Origin: Clostridia bacterium
GTDB lineage: Bacteria; Bacillota; Clostridia; Oscillospirales; CAG-272
Reading direction: 5' to 3'
DNA length: 64,000 nt
Assembly: GCA_017471825.1 (NCBI GenBank)
Contig: JAFURQ010000027.1
Span: 59,478-123,477, forward strand
Below are positions 2,944 through 37,232 of the stretch, in pieces. The position numbers and the translations under genes were made by a program. The stretch's first letter is position 1; each line of letters begins with the position of its first letter. A model generated the notes under the pieces. It ran no database searches. It was not told the origin of the DNA and worked only from the letters and a program-made list of their open reading frames with translations.

Positions 2944-5052
2944 ATGGTTCTGATAATCGCGGAAAAGCCGAGCCTTGCGCGTAATATCGTGGCTGGCATA
3001 GGTAAAATGGATAAAAAGGACGGCTATTTTATCAATTCCGATTATATAGTCAGCTGGGCGTTCGGTCACCTGTTTTCGCTCGTCGACGTCGAAACCTATA
3101 CCGGCACCACCGGCACAGGCTGGACCCTTGACACACTGCCTTGCTTTCCCGAAAAATTCAAGTTCGAGCTTAAACGCGGAAATGATAAGAAGGTCGATTC
3201 CGGAGTAAAAAAGCAGTTCTCCGTTATAGAAAAGCTCATCAACCGTCCCGACGTCGATACTGTTGTAAATGCAGGAGACGCGGACCGCGAGGGTGAGATT
3301 ATAGTAAGGCTTTGTATACAAAATTCGCTTAAATCTCCAAAGGAGCAAAAGCGTCTTTGGCTCCCTGACCAGACTCCCGAAACCGTCAGAAAGGCGCTTG
3401 CTGAAATGAAGGACGAGAGTGAGTATAACAGTCTTGCGGAGGAGGGCTTTGCCCGAACCTATATTGACTGGCTGTACGGCGTTAATTTGACACGGTATGC
3501 CACTATTCGCTCGGGACAGCTTCTCAGAGTGGGCAGAGTTATTGTTCCGATAGTCCGCGCAATATACGATAGGGATATAGAAATCAGAAATTTCAAGCCC
3601 GAAATATACTACGCCATACAATCAAGCGCAAAGACTCACGGGCAAAAAATTGACCTTGTAAGTAAACATAAGTTTGCAAAAGACGAGAAAAACAAGGCGG
3701 AAGAGCTCGCAACGCTTTACAATAATACGGGCGCTGTCGTATCTGCCGTTGAAAATAAAAAGGATACGATTTTCCCCGGAAAGCTTTACTCCTTGTCAAC
3801 TCTGCAAAACGTGCTTGGAAAAAAATATAAAATGAGCATGGCTGACAGCCTGAAAATTATACAAAAGCTCTACGAGGAGGGATACCTCACATATCCGAGA
3901 ACCAACTCGGAATACCTTGCAACTGCAGAAAAGGACAAAATGCGCTCGATAATCGCCAACGTTTCAAAGCTTGGATATCCCGTGCGCTTCAAGGACTCGA
4001 AATCAATATTCGATGACTCCAAAATCGAATCGCACTCTGCGCTTACCCCGACATACAAAATCCCCGACGTCAACAAGCTTGATGAAAAGGAAAAGCAGGT
4101 TTATTCCACCGTTTTCCGCAGATTTGTAGCGGTTTTCTGCGCCGAGGAGTGTATTGCGAGCAAGAGCGAGATACGGATAAAGGTTGGCGAGCTCGAGGAA
4201 TTTTCTCTCAAGGGTACGGTAATTCTTGAGCCCGGATGGACGAAATACGATGACTATTCCGGCAAGGATAAGGTCCTGCCCAAGCTTACAGTAGGGGAGT
4301 CGGTTAATATCGATTTCCAACCTACCGAAAAGGAAACCACACCGCCAAAGCATTACACTATCGAGACTCTCAATAAGTACCTTAAGAATCCTTTTAAGGA
4401 CGACAAGGCGAAGGCGCGCGAGCTTGAGGAGGCAGGCGAGGTCGACGATGCCGACGATTACCGCGCAATATTTGAAGGACTCGAGCTCGGCACCGAGGCT
4501 ACCCGTACGGGAATTATAGACAACGCCAGGAAAAGCGGATATATAAATCTCAAAAAGGATGTTTACACTATACTTGGCGGCGGTGAATTTCTTATAGAAT
4601 CGCTTGGACGCCTTGGTATCGCTATGGACAAGTATAAAACCAGCGAGATGGGCAAAGCGCTTAAAAAGGTTTTCCATGGAGAGATGAGCGCTGAAGAGAG
4701 TGTGAAGCTTGCAGAGCGTGAGATTCTCGAAATCTTCAAAAACGGAGGAACGGCGGTTGCTGCGGCGCCCGTACCGACAGGCTCGCTCGGTGAGATAGTC
4801 GGTCCTTGCCCCCTGTGCGGCAAGAACGTTATCAGAGGAAGACAGGGCTACGGATGTATGGGTTACAAGGAGGGGTGCGATTTCAGAATCGGGCTCACCA
4901 TTTGCAAAAAGACTGTACCGATAAATCAAATCCGCGCGCTTCTTGCGACGGGCACGACAGCAAAGCTTCGCGGTTTCATTTCAAAAACGGGAAAAAGCTT
5001 TGACGGAAAGCTGATAATAAAGGATGGAAAGGTTGTTTTTGATTTCAGTTGA
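2944..5052 (+). CDS. topB: DNA topoisomerase III with a C-terminal zinc-finger region
   Basis: MVLIIAEKPSLARNI is the Toprim N-terminus. YLTYPRTNSEYL contains the active-site Tyr region. The C-terminus has CPLCGKNV...GYGCMGYKEGCDF. GGAGG lies upstream of the start. Confidence 0.85.
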   Translation: MVLIIAEKPSLARNIVAGIGKMDKKDGYFINSDYIVSWAFGHLFSLVDVETYTGTTGTGWTLDTLPCFPEKFKFELKRGNDKKVDSGVKKQFSVIEKLINRPDVDTVVNAGDADREGEIIVRLCIQNSLKSPKEQKRLWLPDQTPETVRKALAEMKDESEYNSLAEEGFARTYIDWLYGVNLTRYATIRSGQLLRVGRVIVPIVRAIYDRDIEIRNFKPEIYYAIQSSAKTHGQKIDLVSKHKFAKDEKNKAEELATLYNNTGAVVSAVENKKDTIFPGKLYSLSTLQNVLGKKYKMSMADSLKIIQKLYEEGYLTYPRTNSEYLATAEKDKMRSIIANVSKLGYPVRFKDSKSIFDDSKIESHSALTPTYKIPDVNKLDEKEKQVYSTVFRRFVAVFCAEECIASKSEIRIKVGELEEFSLKGTVILEPGWTKYDDYSGKDKVLPKLTVGESVNIDFQPTEKETTPPKHYTIETLNKYLKNPFKDDKAKARELEEAGEVDDADDYRAIFEGLELGTEATRTGIIDNARKSGYINLKKDVYTILGGGEFLIESLGRLGIAMDKYKTSEMGKALKKVFHGEMSAEESVKLAEREILEIFKNGGTAVAAAPVPTGSLGEIVGPCPLCGKNVIRGRQGYGCMGYKEGCDFRIGLTICKKTVPINQIRALLATGTTAKLRGFISKTGKSFDGKLIIKDGKVVFDFS

Positions 5053-30252: not shown

Positions 30253-30274
30253 CTCTCAAATTTTATTTATGCAG
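30253..30274. repeat. 22-nt perfect repeat, copy 1 (ctctcaaattttatttatgcag), covering the stop and flank of spoIVB relic 3
   Basis: An identical 22-mer occurs at 31852-31873. Confidence 0.85.
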
Positions 30275-30388
30275 CTTTTGGTATTACTCCGTTTTGTGCG
30301 CGGTCCCAATCGGTAACGCTTGCAACGTAAATGAGTATAACATGGGTCACCGCGCCGATAAGCTCGCTGTTTTGAATGATATATAAGC
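30267..30388 (-). pseudogene. degenerate relic of the spoIVB 3' end (third copy)
   Basis: The reverse frame reads GLYIIQNSELIGAVTHVILIYVASVTDWDRAQNGVIPKAA*. The intact SpoIVB reads [47 protein letters not shown]. Confidence 0.5.
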
Positions 30389-30417
30389 CATTCCGGTGTG
30401 TAACAAAGATAATAAGT

Positions 30418-30660
30418 TTATTTTATTTCTTGTTCCAGCTTGTTGAATTCTTCGGTGTTGAAAAATTCAATCAGTGTTATTCCAAAACCGTCACAAAGCA
30501 TTTTTAAGGTCACTATTCCGGGATTTTTGCTTTTTCCGTATAAAATATTTTTTATTGACGAGGGAGCGACCGCCGATTCCATAGCAAGCCTGTGTATTGA
30601 CATTTTTCTTTCGCCCAGTAATTGTAATATTCTGTTTTTTACCGTAGTGTAAGTATCCAT
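30418..30660 (-). CDS. XRE-family helix-turn-helix regulator (80 aa)
   Basis: ...ERKMSIHRLAMESAVAPSSIKNILYGKSKNPGIVTLKMLCDGFGITLIEFF is a Cro/CI-type HTH. Confidence 0.8.
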   Translation of the reverse strand: MDTYTTVKNRILQLLGERKMSIHRLAMESAVAPSSIKNILYGKSKNPGIVTLKMLCDGFGITLIEFFNTEEFNKLEQEIK

Positions 30661-31821: not shown

Positions 31822-31856
31822 ACAAAAAGAGAGGGAAGCCTTAGGGCAACCCTCTC
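31822..31856 (-). terminator. rho-independent terminator (minus strand)
   Basis: The 7-bp stem gagaggg...ccctctc is followed by TTTTTG on the minus strand. Confidence 0.6.
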
Positions 31857-31873
31857 AAATTTTATTTATGCAG
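31852..31873. repeat. 22-nt perfect repeat, copy 2 (ctctcaaattttatttatgcag)
   Basis: It is identical to 30253-30274, but here it lies 38 nt downstream of the xylA-fragment stop. Confidence 0.85.
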
Positions 31874-31910
31874 TTGTTTCGCCTTTTGGATAGCAATTTC
31901 AGAGTAGCTT

Positions 31911-32367
31911 TTATCCAAACAGCGTTCTGTTCAGAACGCTCTCCAAATATTCCTGTCTGCCGCTGTTCGGTGTCGGGCAAGTGCGCATTTTTTCCGCGTG
32001 TTCTGCAAGCTCGGCAAGAGTTGTTTTTCCTGCTCTTATCTTCTGTCCAAGCTCGCTGTTAAAGCTCGAGTATTTTTTCTCAACGAACATATCAAGCTCG
32101 CCGTTCTCGATGAGCTCTGCGGCCTTGATAAGACCGAGCGCAAAGGTATCCATACCAAGAATATATGCATAGAACATATCCTCGTAGGTGTTTGAGGGTC
32201 TGCGGTTTTTTGCATCAAAGTTGAGGCCGCCCGTAAGACCGCCTGCCTTAAGCACCTCGTACATGCACATAGTGCTCTCGTATACGTCGTACGGAAACTC
32301 GTCAGTATCCCAACCGAGCAAATAGTCGCCCTGATTTGCATCAATAGATCCAAGCATTGAAAATGGC
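31911..32367 (-). pseudogene. xylA: xylose isomerase, C-terminal fragment only (about 150 aa)
   Basis: GSIDANQGDYLLGWDTDEFP...GGLNFDAKNRRPS...MDTFALGL is the XylA C-terminal third. The upstream part of the frame is unrelated sequence. Confidence 0.75.
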
Positions 32368-32673
32368 TTGTTGCGTGCTATATTTGATTTTATTGATAAC
32401 AATTTTAACAAAAGCTGTACTCTTGAGGATTTGAGTATCGCCATTGGATATAACAGCTCCTATCTCTCCAGATATTTCAAGGAATTTACCAATATGACGT
32501 TTGTTTCCTGCGTCAACCGATACAGAATCAGCAGGGCATGCTATATGTTAAAAAACAGTGATAAAACAGTGCTTGAATGCGCATACGAATGCGGATACAA
32601 ATCCTTGAGGAGCTTTAACAGAAATTTTATGCTGTACGTTGGGGTAACACCAACCGATTATAGAACAAACTAA
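32368..32673 (+). pseudogene. AraC-family HTH domain fragment (no sensor domain)
   Basis: The 101-aa fragment covers only the two-HTH DNA-binding domain (LEDLSIAIGYNSSYLSRYFKEFT..., ...ECGYKSLRSFNRNFMLYVGVTPTDYR). It abuts the xylA fragment head to head. Confidence 0.55.
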
Positions 32674-32685
32674 AACAAATAAAAA

Positions 32686-32728
32686 AGCAAAATCAGACCT
32701 GAAACGGAATGATTTTGCTTTTTATTTT
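32686..32728. terminator. bidirectional terminator-like hairpin
   Basis: The 10-bp stem agcaaaatca ... tgattttgct is flanked by an A-run and a T-run. Confidence 0.6.
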
Positions 32729-32873
32729 ATGCCGCCTTCGGCATAGCATTGAATTCTGCCGCGTTTAGCATATTCTCAATGAAAATTCCATACCCTTCAG
32801 TTGGATTTGCTACCATAACGTGAGTTACAGCGCCGACGAGCTTCCCATCCTGTATGATAGGGCTGCCTGACAC
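32727..32873 (-). pseudogene. displaced relic of the spoIVB 3' end (48 codons plus stop; second copy)
   Basis: It encodes [47 protein letters not shown]. It is colinear with the last 48 codons of the intact gene, but the DNA has diverged by roughly one position in four to five. Homology stops abruptly after atagggctgcctgaca (32857-32872), which is identical to 35618-35633. Confidence 0.75.
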
Positions 32874-32898
32874 GAGTGTGTTCAAGTAGGGACAACAG
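32874..32898 (+). repeat. 22-nt motif copy A (gagtgtgttcaagtagggacaacag), abutting spoIVB relic 2
   Basis: It matches 35312-35334 at 22 of 23 positions. Confidence 0.8.
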
Positions 32899-33082
32899 AT
32901 TTTAACAAATTATTGACATCTTCGACACCATTTATTGAGAAAAAACGTCTTTAGTCGTAGTATTTTAGCATATTTGCCACCCAAACAGCTGATAGCGAAC
33001 TATTTTTCTTGATTTTTTAACGTTTATAAGCGAGGGAATTCATAGGACGATTCCCACCCAAATAATTTTTGTTTCCATTGTT

Positions 33083-33229
33083 TTACTTTGGATTTTTTTG
33101 GGCCTTCTTTGACGATTGTTGATTTTTCTTTTTGTAATAATCCCATATAGCAAACTTCTGTTTGCGGCGGTTTTCGAGTGTTATGTTTTTTGATGGTTTG
33201 CCCTTTTTCAAAAAAGGAGATTTAGGCAT
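33083..33229 (-). CDS. possible 48-aa lysine-rich peptide, translationally coupled to the upstream gene
   Basis: The peptide is MPKSPFLKKGKPSKNITLENRRKQKFAIWDYYKKKNQQSSKKAQKNPK. Its ATG overlaps the upstream stop (ATGCCTAA). It could be a chance ORF in AT-rich DNA. Confidence 0.25.
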   Translation of the reverse strand: MPKSPFLKKGKPSKNITLENRRKQKFAIWDYYKKKNQQSSKKAQKNPK

Positions 33230-34019
33230 TGCTATCACCCCCTAAAATGAAATTTTCTTTTTCGTCAAATTTTCCGTTTTCAACGAGTATGTTTATTTGC
33301 TTGGATATTTCTTCGTTCGGCTCGCGCATTGTTTTCTCAAGTAAAAGTATTTTGCTGACATTGTAAATAGGAATAGAGTACAAAGTGTCAAATTTATCTT
33401 TTTCGAAATATAACAAATACCAATGCTCTTTTTTTACCGAAAACTCAAGCGCTGCGCAAAGAGCGCGTATAACCCTGCCGCCAATGTTAAATTGAAGAAT
33501 AAGCTCGTTCTCTATAGCCTCGTTCAGTTTGTTATACTCCTCGTTAAAGCAAATTCGCTCTTTTTGATATTCGGACTGATTAAAGTATTCGTGAATTAAA
33601 TTGCGAAGATATGCGCTGCGTTTTATTCCTATAGAATCAAGTCTGGCAAACAGCTCTGCATATAAATCTTCGTTTTTAACGTCAAATCGAATATTAATAA
33701 TATCATCGCACTCGTATTCGCTTTCGTCAAAATACAAGTAATCAAATGACTCGGCTAAAAAGTCGAGTATTTTTTCTTGCATTCCTTCAGCTATGCTTGC
33801 TTTAATGTTTTTATCAAGATATTCGCGCAAAAATCCTTTCTTGTAAGCGCGATAAGCAAGCATGTTAGGAAGCATTTTGTTGAAAAATTCATTTTCGTTT
33901 CCAAGTCCGTTTTTCTTAATGAAATTTCTTTTAGAAACTTCAGCGGTCATAAGTCTTGCTAACAAGCTCGGAACACGTAATGTCATTGTTTGTGGGTAAA
34001 ATTTATCTCTCATAATCAT
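33222..34019 (-). CDS. hypothetical protein with a WYL-like C-terminal region (possible ligand-sensing regulator)
   Basis: The segment ...ILQFNIGGRVIRALCAALEFSVKKEHWYLLYFEKDKFDTLYSIPIYNVSKILLLEKT... fits the WYL pattern (x-WYL-x(8-12)-hydrophobic-x-[IL]-x-R/N-[IV]). The N-terminal part is unassigned. Confidence 0.5.
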   Translation of the reverse strand: MIMRDKFYPQTMTLRVPSLLARLMTAEVSKRNFIKKNGLGNENEFFNKMLPNMLAYRAYKKGFLREYLDKNIKASIAEGMQEKILDFLAESFDYLYFDESEYECDDIINIRFDVKNEDLYAELFARLDSIGIKRSAYLRNLIHEYFNQSEYQKERICFNEEYNKLNEAIENELILQFNIGGRVIRALCAALEFSVKKEHWYLLYFEKDKFDTLYSIPIYNVSKILLLEKTMREPNEEISKQINILVENGKFDEKENFILGGDSNA

Positions 34020-34178
34020 AGTATATCATAAATGTAATGCAAAATCAATATATTTTTTGATATATATCAAGTAATATTCACTATTCTTAATAAATAAGTG
34101 TAATACAATATATGAATGCGATTGTATGCTATTATTCTTGTTTTGCTAGTGCTATAATATGAGTGCAATCAAAAAAGA

Positions 34179-34207
34179 TTGACAAATATATGAAAGGATG
34201 TTATAAT
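34179..34207 (+). promoter_or_regulatory. perfect consensus sigma-A promoter
   Basis: TTGACA (34179-34184) is followed by exactly 17 nt and TATAAT (34202-34207). The first ATG of the downstream ORF is at 34211. Confidence 0.6.
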
Positions 34208-34210
34208 TTT

Positions 34211-34702
34211 ATGGGATTAATAAAACTTGTTAATCAGTGGGTATATAAGCACTCTCGAAAGCCGGAGCATTACAAAAGAGTGAAAAATCCGCCAAAAACG
34301 ATTTCCGAAAAGATAAAGCGACCACAAGATGCACGTCAGCAACAGTATAACAATTGGTGCAAAAGATATGGCGTGTATAGCGGTTCATATTTGCCGAAAA
34401 ACCCGGATGCTCTTACGCGAAAAGGGTGGAGAGAAACCACTAATGTGAAAGATAAGACTAAAAAGCATAGGGAATTCCAACGCAAATCAACTTCTCAGAT
34501 GGTTCGATATGATAGCAAAGAGTTCAAAAAAGGGCGATATGAAGATGAACACTACCACTGGGAAAACGCCAAAAGCATTAAAGAAAGAAGAAAGCTTGGC
34601 GAGATGGAAAAATATGTTGATAGGTATGGAAACGTGTGCGCGGATGGCTCCAAGGAGTCGCACTTAGCACCAAAGGACAAAACGTACAACTTTAGGAGAT
34701 GA
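34211..34702 (+). CDS. small, very basic protein resembling a stand-alone polymorphic-toxin C-terminal (nuclease-type) module
   Basis: MGLIKLVNQW...LPKNPDALTRKGWRETTN...HREFQRKSTSQMVRYDSKEFKKGRYEDEHYHWENAK...YVDRYGNVCADGSKESHLAP is Lys/Arg-rich and has His-containing motifs (H-Y-H-W, S-H-L). The start is uncertain: GTG at 34163 or ATG at 34211. No family was assigned with certainty. Confidence 0.5.
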   Translation: MGLIKLVNQWVYKHSRKPEHYKRVKNPPKTISEKIKRPQDARQQQYNNWCKRYGVYSGSYLPKNPDALTRKGWRETTNVKDKTKKHREFQRKSTSQMVRYDSKEFKKGRYEDEHYHWENAKSIKERRKLGEMEKYVDRYGNVCADGSKESHLAPKDKTYNFRR

Positions 34703-35133
34703 TTACAATGAAAAAGCAAGAGTTATTAGATCTGCTTAACAAGGCGGCTGATAGTATAAATTTGCACGATGCAAGCATGTATGGCTTCAAGTGGATAAAC
34801 AGCACCGTTGAGTTTATTATATGTCTTGGCAGCTATCACTATATCATTAACGAGTTAGAAGAACTTGTCGACGATGTAAATAACCGTGTTGTTTTAACCT
34901 TGAAATTTGATGGTATTGAAAATGTTGAATGCGAGTTTTGCGAAGATTTCAGATACGACGATGCTGAAATAATGGAAAATAATCAGCTTGAAAACGGAAC
35001 TTTTGAATTTGTTTTTTTAGAATGCGGTAACCCCGGTAAAATATCATTTAGATATACCAAATTTGAGTGGGATGTTGTTGGTGAATTCGATTATGAGCAA
35101 ATCAAACAGTGGTGTAAAGAAAACGGGCTATAA
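34699..35133 (+). CDS. acidic 144-aa protein, immunity/antitoxin-like partner (speculative)
   Basis: Its start overlaps the upstream stop (ATGA). It is acidic. The pattern LHDASMYGFKWINSTVEF...VVLTLKFDGIENVECEF... resembles immunity proteins of polymorphic toxin systems. Confidence 0.55.
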   Translation: MITMKKQELLDLLNKAADSINLHDASMYGFKWINSTVEFIICLGSYHYIINELEELVDDVNNRVVLTLKFDGIENVECEFCEDFRYDDAEIMENNQLENGTFEFVFLECGNPGKISFRYTKFEWDVVGEFDYEQIKQWCKENGL

Positions 35134-35222
35134 AAAGGAATATATGGATATATCTCTTGATATAGATATGAACATCACCATAACATAAGTTCTATATGAT
35201 GCGGCATTGTCCAGGGAATACC

Positions 35223-35246
35223 AGTGTGTTATAATAGGGATAACAC
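35223..35246 (+). repeat. 22-nt motif copy B (agtgtgttataatagggataacac), degenerate
   Basis: It shares AGTGTGTT-A-A-TAGGGA-AAC with copies A and C. It is also internally palindromic (gtgttat...ataacac). Confidence 0.65.
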
Positions 35247-35283
35247 AATTACTATTAAAATCGAATAATGCTCGGACGAAAGA

Positions 35284-35297
35284 CTGTTGTCCCTATT
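35284..35297 (-). repeat. inverted partial copy of the 22-nt motif (ctgttgtccctatt)
   Basis: It forms a perfect 12-bp inverted repeat with 35323-35334 (aatagggacaac) across a 25-nt spacer. Its 12 nt ctgttgtcccta are the exact reverse complement of tagggacaacag at 32887-32898. Confidence 0.8.
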
Positions 35298-35311
35298 ATA
35301 ACTCACTCGTG

Positions 35312-35334
35312 GAGTGTGTTCAAATAGGGACAAC
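35312..35334 (+). repeat. 22-nt motif copy C (gagtgtgttcaaatagggacaac)
   Basis: It matches copy A at 22 of 23 positions. Confidence 0.8.
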
Positions 35335-35340
35335 TTTTTC

Positions 35341-35470
35341 TATAATCAAGCGAAGCGAATCGACAAGCTTGATTGTCAGCAAGCGAGCGCAGATTGCCCC
35401 GCGAGCGCTCCGTAAACGGAGCAATACACGAAGTGCCGCCGCTCGAGCGGCGAAGCTCGCAAGGAGTATA
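35341..35470. repeat. GC-rich cluster of short palindromes just downstream of the spoIVB stop
   Basis: The palindromes are aatcaagc...gcttgatt (8 bp), gcgagcgc in two direct copies, ctccg-taaa-cggag, and the 16-nt perfect palindrome cgccgctcgagcggcg. Confidence 0.7.
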
Positions 35471-35487
35471 ATTTCACTTTTTCCTCA

Positions 35488-36627
35488 TTACGCCGCCTTT
35501 TGCTGCACCTGACTTTCTGCCGCGTTTAACATATTCTCTATAAAAATCCCGTATCCTTCCGTTGGGTCAGCAACCATCACGTGGGTGACCGCTCCAACTA
35601 ATTTCCCATCTTGTATAATAGGGCTGCCTGACATTCCGCGGACGATGCCGCCCGTGAGGGCTATCAGGGTTGGGTCGGTGACCTTGATTTTGAAGGATTT
35701 TGAGCCGGTTGAGGAGTAGTCAACGTCCTTGATTTCGACGTTGAATATACCGCGCTTGCCGTTCTTGACTGTTGAAATTATTTGTGCCGCGCCGCATTTT
35801 ACCTCGTTGCTTTTTGCGGCGGGCATCAGCTTGTCGCAATAGTCGGGTAGGGTATCGAGCGTACCGAAAACGCCGCACTCGGAATTTTTGGCAATAGAGC
35901 CGAGTGTTGCTTGCTTCAGCACTCCCGTAAGCTCGCCTGCGTGTCCGACCTCGCCCTTCTTACAGCCGCCGAGAGTTACAGAGTTAACCGTGCCGCTTCT
36001 GACGCTGACGTAGCCTGTTCCGTCTGCGGCGGAGACCCCGTGACCAAGACCGCCAAAGGCGAGCGTTTCGGGATCGATAAACGTGACAGTGCCAATGCCT
36101 GCGGTGTGAGCGCGAAGATTTACGCCGAGCTTGTAGACTCCGTCACAGAGCTTGGGTACGGCGGTTACGTTAAGTATTTCTCCGCCTCGAATTATTTCAA
36201 GCTCAAGCTTTTTACCGCCGGAATTTTTCACCGCATCCTCCACCTCGGAGCATTCGTGGACATCTTTACCGTTTACCTTTAATATTCTGTCACCGACAAG
36301 GAGCACGCGTGAGGAGGAGCCGCTTGTCACGGATACGCCGTCCTCGTTAATTATAAGCCCAAAGGCAGAGCCGCCGGGGTATAGCATAATAGCCTCGTCG
36401 TCTTTCCTTTTACCGCCGAAGAAGAGCTCGTAGATTCTTGAGGAAACCTCAACGTTTTTTGATACCGCAGCAACGCCGCCGTCGCTTAAGGTGGCAGGCG
36501 TGTAACATTTTTCACTGTATAAATCGGCAAAACCTGCTGATGCAGAACCGCTGACGGCGGTGCCGAGCAGGCACGCAAGCATACAAACAGCGGTTGTAAA
36601 TTTTAACAATATTTTTCTCATTCCCAT
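35488..36627 (-). CDS. spoIVB: SpoIVB peptidase (S55 family, PDZ plus serine protease)
   Basis: There is a signal/TM N-terminus and a PDZ-like region. GTVTFIDPETLAFGGLGHGV contains the catalytic His, and GMSGSPI contains the catalytic Ser. Confidence 0.85.
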   Translation of the reverse strand: MGMRKILLKFTTAVCMLACLLGTAVSGSASAGFADLYSEKCYTPATLSDGGVAAVSKNVEVSSRIYELFFGGKRKDDEAIMLYPGGSAFGLIINEDGVSVTSGSSSRVLLVGDRILKVNGKDVHECSEVEDAVKNSGGKKLELEIIRGGEILNVTAVPKLCDGVYKLGVNLRAHTAGIGTVTFIDPETLAFGGLGHGVSAADGTGYVSVRSGTVNSVTLGGCKKGEVGHAGELTGVLKQATLGSIAKNSECGVFGTLDTLPDYCDKLMPAAKSNEVKCGAAQIISTVKNGKRGIFNVEIKDVDYSSTGSKSFKIKVTDPTLIALTGGIVRGMSGSPIIQDGKLVGAVTHVMVADPTEGYGIFIENMLNAAESQVQQKAA

Positions 36628-36740
36628 TCATCCCATCGTTTTTACTGAATTTATTTTTCCTCGCAATAGCGGTTGTATGAGAAGAAAAAACAGCCAAAAA
36701 AACAGGTATGAAAAAGCTTCATACCTGTGATTTGTTTTTA

Positions 36741-37232
36741 TTATTCTTCAAAGAAAACCTCTATAAGAGCATTCATAATATGCATCGGACCGGAAGAATA
36801 AATGCACATGTAGCTACTCGTTCTTATCGGGGTATAAAGTTCAATTATTGTACCTGATGGATTTTTCTTGAGCTTAAATCCAGATTGCTCGGCGATTTTA
36901 ATCATTTGAGAAAAATCAACCGATATATCGCCGCAATCTACCTTTATTTCAACAAGATCCGGACTGCATTTGATTTTTGCGGATATTTCCGCTTTGGCAT
37001 TAATCTCGGTGAGCAGCATTTTGAGAAAATGCGCAAAGCCCCTTGCCGATACGTCGATATATCCCATCGCATTGTTAGTGATTTCGAGGTCTATCAGCCC
37101 GCGGAAATTTGAGTTTATAAATTTTTCAACGGCACTTGTAAATTCAAGGGACGAAAACGTAACTATACGGCATTCGGACGGTGAGGTATCTATTACCCTC
37201 GGGATTTTTGTGCCAAGCTTTTGGGGTTTCAC
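36741..37232 (-). CDS. hypothetical protein (163 aa)
   Basis: The ORF overlaps the upstream gene by 4 nt. No family was recognised. Confidence 0.5.
   Translation of the reverse strand: MKPQKLGTKIPRVIDTSPSECRIVTFSSLEFTSAVEKFINSNFRGLIDLEITNNAMGYIDVSARGFAHFLKMLLTEINAKAEISAKIKCSPDLVEIKVDCGDISVDFSQMIKIAEQSGFKLKKNPSGTIIELYTPIRTSSYMCIYSSGPMHIMNALIEVFFEE

Follow-up and report, generated by a model that had tools for sequence, protein, structure and literature searches.

In this study, a 64,000-nt stretch of DNA from a Clostridia bacterium (GenBank assembly GCA_017471825.1, contig JAFURQ010000027.1, positions 59,478 to 123,477), hereafter referred to as the window, was analysed for a 22-nt motif, AGTGTGTTNANNTAGGGAYAAC, that occurs at both ends of a cassette inserted at the sporulation protease gene spoIVB. 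The motif is best explained as the conserved portion of two 24-nt half-sites, P and P', found in the attachment (att) sites of large serine recombinases (LSRs), and we give this explanation as a whole a probability of about 0.75. The cassette in the window is probably a recombinase-less and grounded, that is, currently immobile, member of a family of cassettes that piles up downstream of spoIVB. An unexplained repeat would thereby become a defined set of recombination sites.

Motif copies and their distribution

The motif was searched across the window by pattern on both strands, with up to three mismatches, and exactly four copies were found: copy 1 at 32875-32896 (+ strand, no mismatch), copy 2 at 35223-35244 (+ strand, one mismatch), copy 3 at 35286-35307 (- strand, two mismatches) and copy 4 at 35313-35334 (+ strand, no mismatch). 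The coordinates given for the direct and inverted copies in the initial annotation all held. Its description of the inverted copy as partial did not, as copy 3 extends over the full 22 nt; the perfect 12-bp inverted repeat between copies 3 and 4 (35286-35297 and 35323-35334, spacer of 25 nt) and the reverse-complement relation of copy 3 to 32887-32898 were correctly described. Only 0.01 copies were expected by chance and none of 100 shuffles gave four matches, in agreement with the earlier view that these are not chance repeats. A genome-wide search, which had been proposed as a check, detected no further copy in the remainder of the 1.63-Mb genome to which the window belongs (G000), and the motif is restricted there to the spoIVB locus.

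The intact spoIVB gene encodes 379 aa with PDZ and Peptidase_S55 domains (35488-36627, - strand; Pfam Peptidase_S55, 1.4e-68, full profile). A displaced 3' relic of spoIVB corresponding to aa 332-379 lies at 32727-32872 (- strand; tblastn, 2e-20; Pfam Peptidase_S55 positions 175-210), and its identity to the live gene end is 82% at the nucleotide level (32754-32872) and 85% at the amino acid level. The alignment between relic and intact gene ends at 32872 and copy 1 begins two bases beyond this point, which bears out the proposal that copy 1 abuts the relic breakpoint.

The same arrangement was found in other genomes. Matches to the motif were present in 5 of 200 same-family genomes, and the reversed control gave none. 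In these genomes, the motif adjoins a spoIVB relic that starts at the same codon (G124, G175, G109 and G186), or a motif pair is located 30-45 nt past the stop codon of a full-length spoIVB (G032, G109 and G186). The joint, composed of the motif, CGTG and then the Ser codon of SGSPI, is identical in four family genomes. Empty sites were seen in three same-genus genomes, where spoIVB lacks both the motif and a relic. The joint pattern TGTTGTCCNT-N7-CACACTCGTG was scanned over 185,579 species genomes, which yielded 91 stretches, and the first 80 of them were read. All but one of these 80 originated from metagenome-assembled genomes (MAGs) of Clostridia from gut or rumen, and approximately 78 of their 83 joint matches continue in frame as SGSPI...GAVTHV, so that the breakpoint follows the Met of the catalytic GMSGSP motif. 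Another 15 joint loci came from a scan of metagenomes, and all 15 have the SGSPI...AVTHV continuation. In total, the joint is known at approximately 100 loci besides the window in the genomes and metagenomes, from gut Clostridia MAGs, often in stacked cassettes and with varied cargo. This recurrence at one spoIVB breakpoint supports the suggestion that the copies mark the ends of an inserted cassette.

Autonomous LSR islands and definition of the att sites

In two IMG/VR contigs and one MAG locus, large open reading frames (ORFs) were located immediately 5' of the joint. All six such ORFs in loci L133 and L131 carry Resolvase, Recombinase and Zn_ribbon_recom domains, and L132 has, by inspection, the same ORFs as the triplets of L133 and L131. 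These LSR ORFs fall into three orthologous positions and constitute a triplet. The last LSR gene stops 17 nt before the right joint in L133 of genome G201, and likewise in the two IMG/VR contigs. The earlier reading of the copies as recombinase recognition sequences is thus upheld, as the LSR islands use the same sites.

The island in G201 is 18.9 kb long and splits spoIVB in a genome without an intact copy. Its left joint is ...ATCCAGGGCATG|TGAGTGAGTTATAATAGGGACAAC, in which the forward motif is identical to copy 3 of the window, and its right joint is GTTGTCCCTATATTGACACACTCGTG|TCCGGTTCC... (TCCGG...). Genome G202 has the same left joint (L134) with different host sequence before the breakpoint. 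The attL site of both islands is ...CAGGG(C/A)A TG TGAGTGAGTTATAATAGGGACAAC, that is, the spoIVB 5' part, TG and the forward motif; the attR site of the islands consists of the reverse motif, CGTG and the spoIVB 3' part. The island therefore lies between hybrid sites, and its flanks, when joined together in G201 and G202, rebuild G-M-S-G-S-P. TG is the sole dinucleotide common to both joints and the rebuilt gene, so that attB can be written as ...CAGGGCA-TG-TCCGG... and attP as P(24)-TG-P'(24). The attP deduced from the island attL and attR is GTTGTCCCTATATTGACACACTCG-TG-TGAGTGAGTTATAATAGGGACAAC, an imperfect palindrome of 24 + 2 + 24 = 50 bp. Each half-site has an inner block CACACTCG (CACACTC) at the crossover and an outer block GTTGTCCCTA (GTTGTCCC), with a variable linker between them. 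This two-block half-site fits the two DNA-binding domains that an LSR subunit would place on it, and adjacency and site architecture suggest that LSRs bind the motif. Inverted half-sites spanning 40-50 bp around a crossover dinucleotide, the form expected of LSR att sites, were found in the islands, in cassette locus L093 and in the window attR-type site, P(24)-TG-B'.

Islands splitting spoIVB were observed in G201 (L133, G201:C13:41000-60500), in G202 (L134, G202:C62) and probably in G206 (C24/C111), and the island-split genomes lack an intact spoIVB copy. In B. subtilis, spoIVB is expressed in the forespore. Rebuilding the gene by excision would therefore delete the island from the spore chromosome, unlike the cases in which a mother-cell gene is rebuilt. 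These islands raise the question of how a forespore-expressed gene could be rebuilt without germ-line loss of the element.

Structure of the window cassette

The att sites defined by the islands account for every motif copy in the window. An attR-type hybrid site lies at 32849-32896 (- strand) and consists of the P arm GTTGTCCCTACTTGAACACACTCG (32896-32873, holding copy 1), TG (32872-32871) and the B' arm TCAGGCAGCCC..., which runs from 32870 downwards. An attL-type hybrid site, inverted relative to spoIVB, was recognised at 35199-35244 (+ strand) from the geometry of attL in G201 and G202. It comprises the B arm GCGGCATTGTCCAGGGAA (35199-35218), a TA centre (35219-35220) where TG is canonical and the P' arm CCAGTGTGTTATAATAGGGATAAC (35221-35244, holding copy 2). 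The 20-nt B arm beside copy 2, which the initial annotation missed, is the spoIVB sequence just 5' of the breakpoint and encodes G-I-V-Q-G. A B arm at the equivalent of copy 2 is conserved in 20 clusters with canonical attL spacing. Copies 3 and 4 together form an attP-like palindrome of 49 bp (35286-35334), a base less than the canonical 50-bp attP; its + strand runs from the reverse complement of P' (35286-35309) through a single central base (35310) to the reverse complement of P (35311-35334). A 41-nt spacer separates the palindrome from the inverted attL-type site. The cargo thus lies between P|B' on one side and an inverted B|P' on the other.

A complete attB-type sequence is contained in the intact spoIVB at approximately 35610-35655 (- strand; relic/gene alignment), and its crossover TG is read as CA on the + strand at 35632-35633. 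The last part of this gene, codons 332-379 and the stop codon (35488-35633, - strand; relic alignment), is a replacement 3' end that belongs to the inserted unit, a layout also found in 36 complete units elsewhere. In the spoIVB direction (- strand), the order is the 5' part of the gene, attB (35633-35632), the replacement 3' end (35631-35488), a GC-rich insert, the palindrome (35334-35286), the spacer, the reversed attL-type site (35244-35199), the cargo, the attR-type site and the relic. The cassette unit thus extends over 32873-35633; it restores the spoIVB 3' end and the gene stays intact.

Traces of recombination at the sites

Loci L093 and L048 carry cargo with 95.5% identity over 1165 nt. 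In L093, the P arm of the cargo is joined via TG to a P' arm and forms a perfect 50-bp attP (positions 1143-1192 of the locus), with the palindrome and spoIVB 30 nt away. In L048, the P arm of the cargo is joined via TG to B', and the same P' arm is joined via TG to a B arm on the opposite side of the cargo (hybrid sites at 577-620 and 3549-3590). Both loci are stored on the other strand, and these positions count along the loci after turning, with the junction pattern reading forward. The two arrangements are exactly those expected before and after attP x attB recombination if the two sites lie inverted on the same molecule. The pair, found in two MAGs, reads as a natural record of a serine-integrase inversion.

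A further comparison concerns L054 and L117, which share a block of 94-100% identity that runs from the copy-2/B-arm site to the motif-CGTG joint and ends there. Outside the block, the spoIVB 5' parts are 40-60% identical, and the palindrome, spacer and gene end are 54-78% identical and of different subtypes. Because the block ends at att sites, the cargo slot appears to be bounded by att sites and to move independently of the platform. In L115, L101, L051, L083 and L117, identity between the live 3' segment and its relic is 95-99% up to the tail; in the window, L054, L119 and L075, it is approximately 80% over 146 nt.

Probable state of the window sites and function of the palindrome

The central dinucleotides do not match in the window: the attR-type site has TG, the attL-type site has TA and the palindrome has one central base. 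On these grounds the window sites look disabled and are presumably dead. Similar changes are common among relatives. Among the 20 clusters, 18 have an attL-type centre other than TG; elsewhere, GA was found in ten, TA in four and TG in only two. The related palindromes are 49 bp long in 15 loci, 48 bp in 4 and 47 bp in 2 (21 of 22 at 47-49 bp), and 50 bp only in L093; the letters at their centres vary freely. If attP were active, its recombination with the live attB, which lies in direct orientation approximately 300 nt away (approximately 190 nt in most relatives), would remove the gene end, so selection would be expected to favour inactivation of attP.

The palindrome has a predicted RNA fold of -30.1 kcal/mol (z = -6.2), and in the sense of the + strand cassette genes a UUUUU run comes directly after it (TTTTT at 35335-35339). 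Judging from this predicted fold, it most likely serves now as a terminator between the cassette genes and spoIVB that would shield spoIVB from antisense transcription. A simple terminator scan missed the palindrome because of its internal loops. Near-consensus hexamers of the sigma-70 type are formed by motif copies, TTGAAC-17-TATAAT at 35295-35323 (- strand) and TTGTCC-17-TATAAT at 35207-35235 (+ strand), and the P'-type arm contains TATAAT. The att sites might double as outward promoters.

Cassette family and search for a recombinase

The 36 complete units elsewhere are 0.39-7.1 kb long, and arrays of two or three units are common. Their metabolic cargo includes AraC regulators with xylose, fructan or other sugar genes, a glycyl-radical enzyme with its activase and a sialidase; other cargo includes DUF4143 ATPases, AAA_21 (AbiEii-like), Schlafen/AlbA_2 and DUF4417 proteins and Fic/Phd toxin-antitoxin pairs. 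No recombinase was found in the window cassette using Pfam, PHROGs and NCBIfam, and a census of 98 ORFs from the 36 units detected none either. A 342-aa ORF in L043 looked by eye like an integrase N-terminus and was rejected, as Pfam did not support it. A protein with Resolvase, Recombinase and zinc-ribbon domains is encoded by L133, L131 and L132, and by neither the window cassette nor the 36 units; the window element is accordingly filed as bounded by LSR sites and not as an autonomous LSR element.

The six LSR-like genes of G000 are on other contigs and only approximately 31% identical to the spoIVB triplet, and none of them is an orthologue. In 22 genomes searched (20 cassette genomes, G201 and G202), orthologues of the cognate LSR were found only in G201 and G202. 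LSRs of 34-37% identity were present in five cassette genomes, and the motif was not nearby. A scan for excised or circular forms with the exact canonical attP gave no match in metagenome contigs, the exact P' arm gave none in viral contigs and an exact-protein look-up of the window SpoIVB returned no other contig.

Proposed origin of the layout

We propose that the TG where the Met codon of G-M-S-G-S-P meets the Ser codon is the point at which LSRs insert mobile DNA into spoIVB. Copy 1 would then be a P arm, joined to the displaced 3' end of spoIVB in an attR-type site, and copy 2 the P' arm of an inverted attL-type joint with its crossover mutated from TG to TA. Copies 3 and 4 would form an attP-like palindrome that is one base too short and now most likely acts as a terminator. 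The layout in which the gene is restored could have arisen from attP x attB recombination between inverted sites combined with homologous (Campbell-type) or LSR-mediated entry via the spoIVB 3' segment. One simple route would be Campbell-type entry of a circle with a spoIVB 3' segment, before or after the attP x attB inversion; the other would be a non-canonical half-site swap at TG. The identity between live and relic ends, whether near-complete or approximately 80%, appears compatible with either route in combination with gene conversion.

Alternative explanations

Several points weigh against the proposal. Canonical LSR reactions alone do not yield an intact gene together with an attP-like site, an inverted attL and an attR, so an extra step such as homologous recombination, a non-canonical half-site swap or a healing event is needed. 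Near-identical live and relic ends would fit homologous recombination or gene conversion equally well. The linker of the island P arm, TATATTGAC, differs slightly from the cassette linker, CTACTTGAA, no LSR was found beside any CTACTTGA-type (cassette-type) joint among the loci examined, and the enzymes are assigned to the sites from adjacency and architecture. Some cassettes (the xyl type, L050 and L114) have only an attR joint and a plain terminator, with no cluster. The MAG of the window is 90% complete and mobile elements bin poorly; an LSR acting in trans could have escaped detection.

The cassette could instead be a live non-autonomous element, in which the cargo segment between the B arm and the P arm is flipped, excised or exchanged by an LSR triplet that a co-resident island provides in trans, which would amount to natural recombinase-mediated cassette exchange on a spoIVB platform. 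The occurrence of one cassette in both recombination states (L093 and L048), the near-identical cargo bounded by sites behind different platform variants in different hosts and the frequent arrays of two or three stacked units all speak for such activity, as do the TG centres that L042 and L048 retain in both sites, the TG in the window attR and the intact attB in the live gene. We nevertheless regard it as unlikely for the window, given the TA centre of its attL and its 49-bp palindrome. The altered centres in 18 of the 20 attL-type sites point the same way, and ten loci share the GA mutation yet differ in cargo, which argues that cargo turnover is independent of that crossover. The missing cognate LSR in the 20 cassette genomes and the lack of an LSR at cassette-type joints also count against it. 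A different view would be that the cassettes move by homologous recombination only: circular or linear DNA would come in through the spoIVB 3' segment (Campbell-type or by double crossover in the flanks), and the motif copies, left over from a single ancient LSR event and passed on with the flanks, would take no part in DNA movement today. Cassettes without a recombinase, the live and relic ends of 95-99% identity at the five loci above and a platform geometry inherited across many cargos (spacings of 171, 27 and 60-63 nt, the 49-bp palindrome and the GA centre) are all in keeping with this view. It has difficulty with the L054/L117 block, which stops exactly at the edges of att sites and not at variable points in the flanks, and with L093 and L048, which differ by a precise exchange of P|P' for P|B' at TG; moreover, 80% identity over 146 nt, as in the window, L054, L119 and L075, offers RecA-type integration a poor substrate. 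Homologous recombination as the only mechanism is therefore judged to be quite improbable.

The initial annotation had favoured arm-type sites, such as those of a tyrosine integrase, or Tn7/Mu-like subterminal repeats bound by a transposase, since several 22-nt copies occur in both orientations and unevenly between the ends. The copies clustered at one end do not form a row of accessory sites; they make up two composite sites, both fossil, namely the inverted attL and the 49-bp attP-like palindrome. Each copy is a core half-site directly at a crossover dinucleotide and is paired with a spoIVB arm or another copy, as LSR half-sites are, and is not distant from a core as an arm site would be. 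No tyrosine recombinase, DDE transposase or TnsB-like gene was found in the window cassette or the 36 other complete units, including no Phage_integrase match in the cargo, and the autonomous relatives encode LSRs. The inverted ends and short target-site duplication of Tn7 and Mu are also missing, as the outermost copies (1 and 4) are direct and only a diverged 146-nt gene segment is duplicated. Both versions of this reading are hardly credible here. A primary role of the motif in RNA or transcription, as a bidirectional terminator or attenuator and perhaps as a promoter-like element (TTGAAC-17-TATAAT) unrelated to recombination, would agree with the stable hairpin and U-run of copies 3 and 4, their position approximately 20 nt past the spoIVB stop in most loci and the promoter-like hexamers inside the copies. 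It would leave unexplained the fusion of copy 1 to the relic at a fixed codon in approximately 100 loci, the fusion of copy 2 to the spoIVB B arm and the same sequences at both ends of the LSR islands that split spoIVB. No compensatory changes were observed between the arms, and in Rfam the region 32000-37000 matched no family and had only a chance hit below threshold; same-genus genomes also have spoIVB without the motif. This reading appears insufficient as a sole explanation and is very improbable as such; termination by the palindrome fits into the LSR explanation as a second role. Two further ideas were dropped: a resemblance between the spoIVB target and the motif (shared CCCTATTATA in the window), since the target letters vary freely with codon choice in other hosts, and a long target-site duplication by a transposase-like staggered cut, once the LSR joints had been found.

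Comparison with known systems and implications

The sites resemble serine-integrase att sites in their imperfect inverted half-sites of approximately 50 bp, the non-palindromic central dinucleotide and the hybrid attL and attR. In streptococcal integrative elements, serine-integrase triplets insert in and disrupt mutT, traG and hsdM (PMC4701971). The islands are similar to these Streptococcus integrative and conjugative elements in that they insert inside a coding gene and carry three tandem Resolvase + Recombinase + Zn-ribbon genes at the end; the codon of the spoIVB catalytic serine is not among the reported targets (PMC4701971). The window element differs from them further, as it has no integrase, leaves its target intact and has an extra inverted attL and a shortened attP besides the attR.

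The known intervening elements of B. subtilis lie in mother-cell genes, in contrast to the forespore gene spoIVB. Such elements are excised from sporulation genes by serine recombinases, including skin in sigK, SPbeta in spsM and gin in gerE (PMC4191935, PMC5499854, PMC5595907). The islands of G201 and G202 are comparable in that they split a sporulation gene, have an LSR at the end and would rebuild the gene by precise excision; G206 probably belongs with them. The window cassette differs, as it interrupts nothing; because it brings a substitute 3' end, excision is not required. In the literature searched, no paper tying spoIVB to such elements was found.

Staphylococcal cassette chromosome (SCC) arrays occupy the 3' end of rlmH/orfX in staphylococci and enterococci and use the serine recombinases CcrAB and CcrC. 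They are similar to the spoIVB cassettes in having a serine-recombinase target in the 3' part of a still-functional gene, tandem stacks, many recombinase-less members and varied cargo. SCC elements have short direct repeats of the attB core at their ends, whereas the window cassette replaces approximately 150 nt and has a fossil attP and an inverted attL, and the enzymes and hosts are unrelated to the window family. With integrons, the spoIVB cassettes share stacked, promoter-poor, recombinase-less and diverse cassettes on one platform, with the newest next to the platform. Unlike integrons, the cassette array has no IntI or other tyrosine recombinase in it or next to it and no attC or attI; GTTGTCC/GGACAAC, with which the motif ends, departs from GTTRRRY/RYYYAAC, LSR half-sites in double-stranded form serve as the sites and the platform is the coding 3' end of spoIVB. 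Classical cis-mobilizable elements are bounded by directly oriented attL and attR of tyrosine integrases. These elements and tandem accretion provide a parallel for recombinase-less, att-bounded elements beside a conserved gene with a duplicated 3' end; the window sites differ in being of the LSR type, with one inverted. In outcome, the cassette resembles SCC or integron stacks, with a different chemistry and a novel gene-restoring platform.

A broader idea, which we put forward tentatively and rate as possible but doubtful, is that the spoIVB 3' end in gut Clostridia is a natural serine-integrase cassette-exchange platform with a constant backbone, a cargo slot and LSRs in trans, alongside autonomous islands that split spoIVB. 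If true, the backbone would consist of the replacement gene end, the disabled attP/terminator and the inverted attL, the cargo slot between a B arm and a P arm would be flipped, swapped and stacked by the LSR triplets, the protease would stay intact and the system would functionally be an "integron" on serine-integrase chemistry. For genome engineering, which uses parts of this kind, the islands offer a new candidate pair of attP and attB (50 bp, TG at the centre) whose serine integrases can be identified. In gut and rumen Clostridia, spoIVB is also a widespread hot spot for insertion, one absent from the literature searched, and genes for sugar use, toxin-antitoxin pairs and ATPases of the defence type are carried there. 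By bringing its own gene end, an element can apparently spare sporulation even when its target is the catalytic-serine codon of a protease essential to sporulation.

Cargo, GC-rich insert and older layers of the window

The cargo region (32897-35198) has four ORFs and no recombinase. An ORF of 265 aa (33222-34019, - strand) is divergent from two overlapping small ORFs of 179 aa (34163-34702, + strand) and 144 aa (34699-35133, + strand), and the fourth ORF encodes 51 aa (33083-33238, - strand). None of them had a significant match in Pfam, PHROG or NCBIfam. Close relatives of the 265-aa protein (87-95% amino acid identity) again occur in spoIVB cassettes (L156-L158). Remoter homologues are located beside pairs of an EndoU-type toxin gene and a small gene at unrelated loci without the motif, which indicates that the motif belongs to the platform and not to the cargo. 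Homologues with EndoU-type neighbours were seen at spoIVB as well as at other places. In L159, L160 and L161, the gene of this family is divergent from two small genes, one of them toxin-like. In the relatives, the toxin-like gene is of the EndoU_bacteria type, and its counterpart in the window is the unrelated 179-aa ORF. L156 carries a different two-gene module beside a regulator-like gene of 95% amino acid identity, which suggests that the pair was swapped within the cassette.

The GC-rich palindromic insert of approximately 126 nt (35347-35472) lies between the spoIVB stop codon and the palindrome and has a TATAAT duplication at its flanks. Most related cassettes do not have it, and their palindrome is approximately 20 nt past the spoIVB stop; the distance from the S-site to the palindrome is 297 nt in the window versus 170-171 nt in most loci. 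Relatives of the insert occur in 9-10 other spoIVB cassette loci at differing positions, with 78-92% identity over the matching parts and 84-90% for the longer ones. Several copies are inside relics and give rise to ...THV|ILLCGAS... reading frames. In G000, the full insert occurs once, and contig C32 has a partial relative next to an LSR gene.

Three layers can be distinguished in the window, namely the cassette studied here, a decayed araC-xylB-xylA cassette and an oldest layer. The relic of the studied cassette has its own terminator hairpin at 32677-32728 (inverted repeat). The araC-xylB-xylA remnant (31852-32726) was recognised by NCBIfam matches to xylose isomerase and an AraC-type regulator and includes C-terminal fragments of AraC (32368-32673, + strand) and xylA (31911-32444, - strand), as well as a final scrap of the tail of the next relic (31852-31873, a 22-mer repeat). 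An intact araC-xylB-xylA counterpart is present in L011/L082, bounded by the spoIVB 3' end and motif|relic. The oldest layer, with XRE and membrane-protein genes, ends in a degenerate joint ...TTGTTACACACCGG|AATGGC... (30253-30420, - strand) and a decayed third spoIVB relic (30392-30267, - strand; tblastn, E = 2e-5 for NGLYIIQNSELIGAVTHVIL). The exact 22-mer ctctcaaattttatttatgcag is present twice, at 30253 and 31852.

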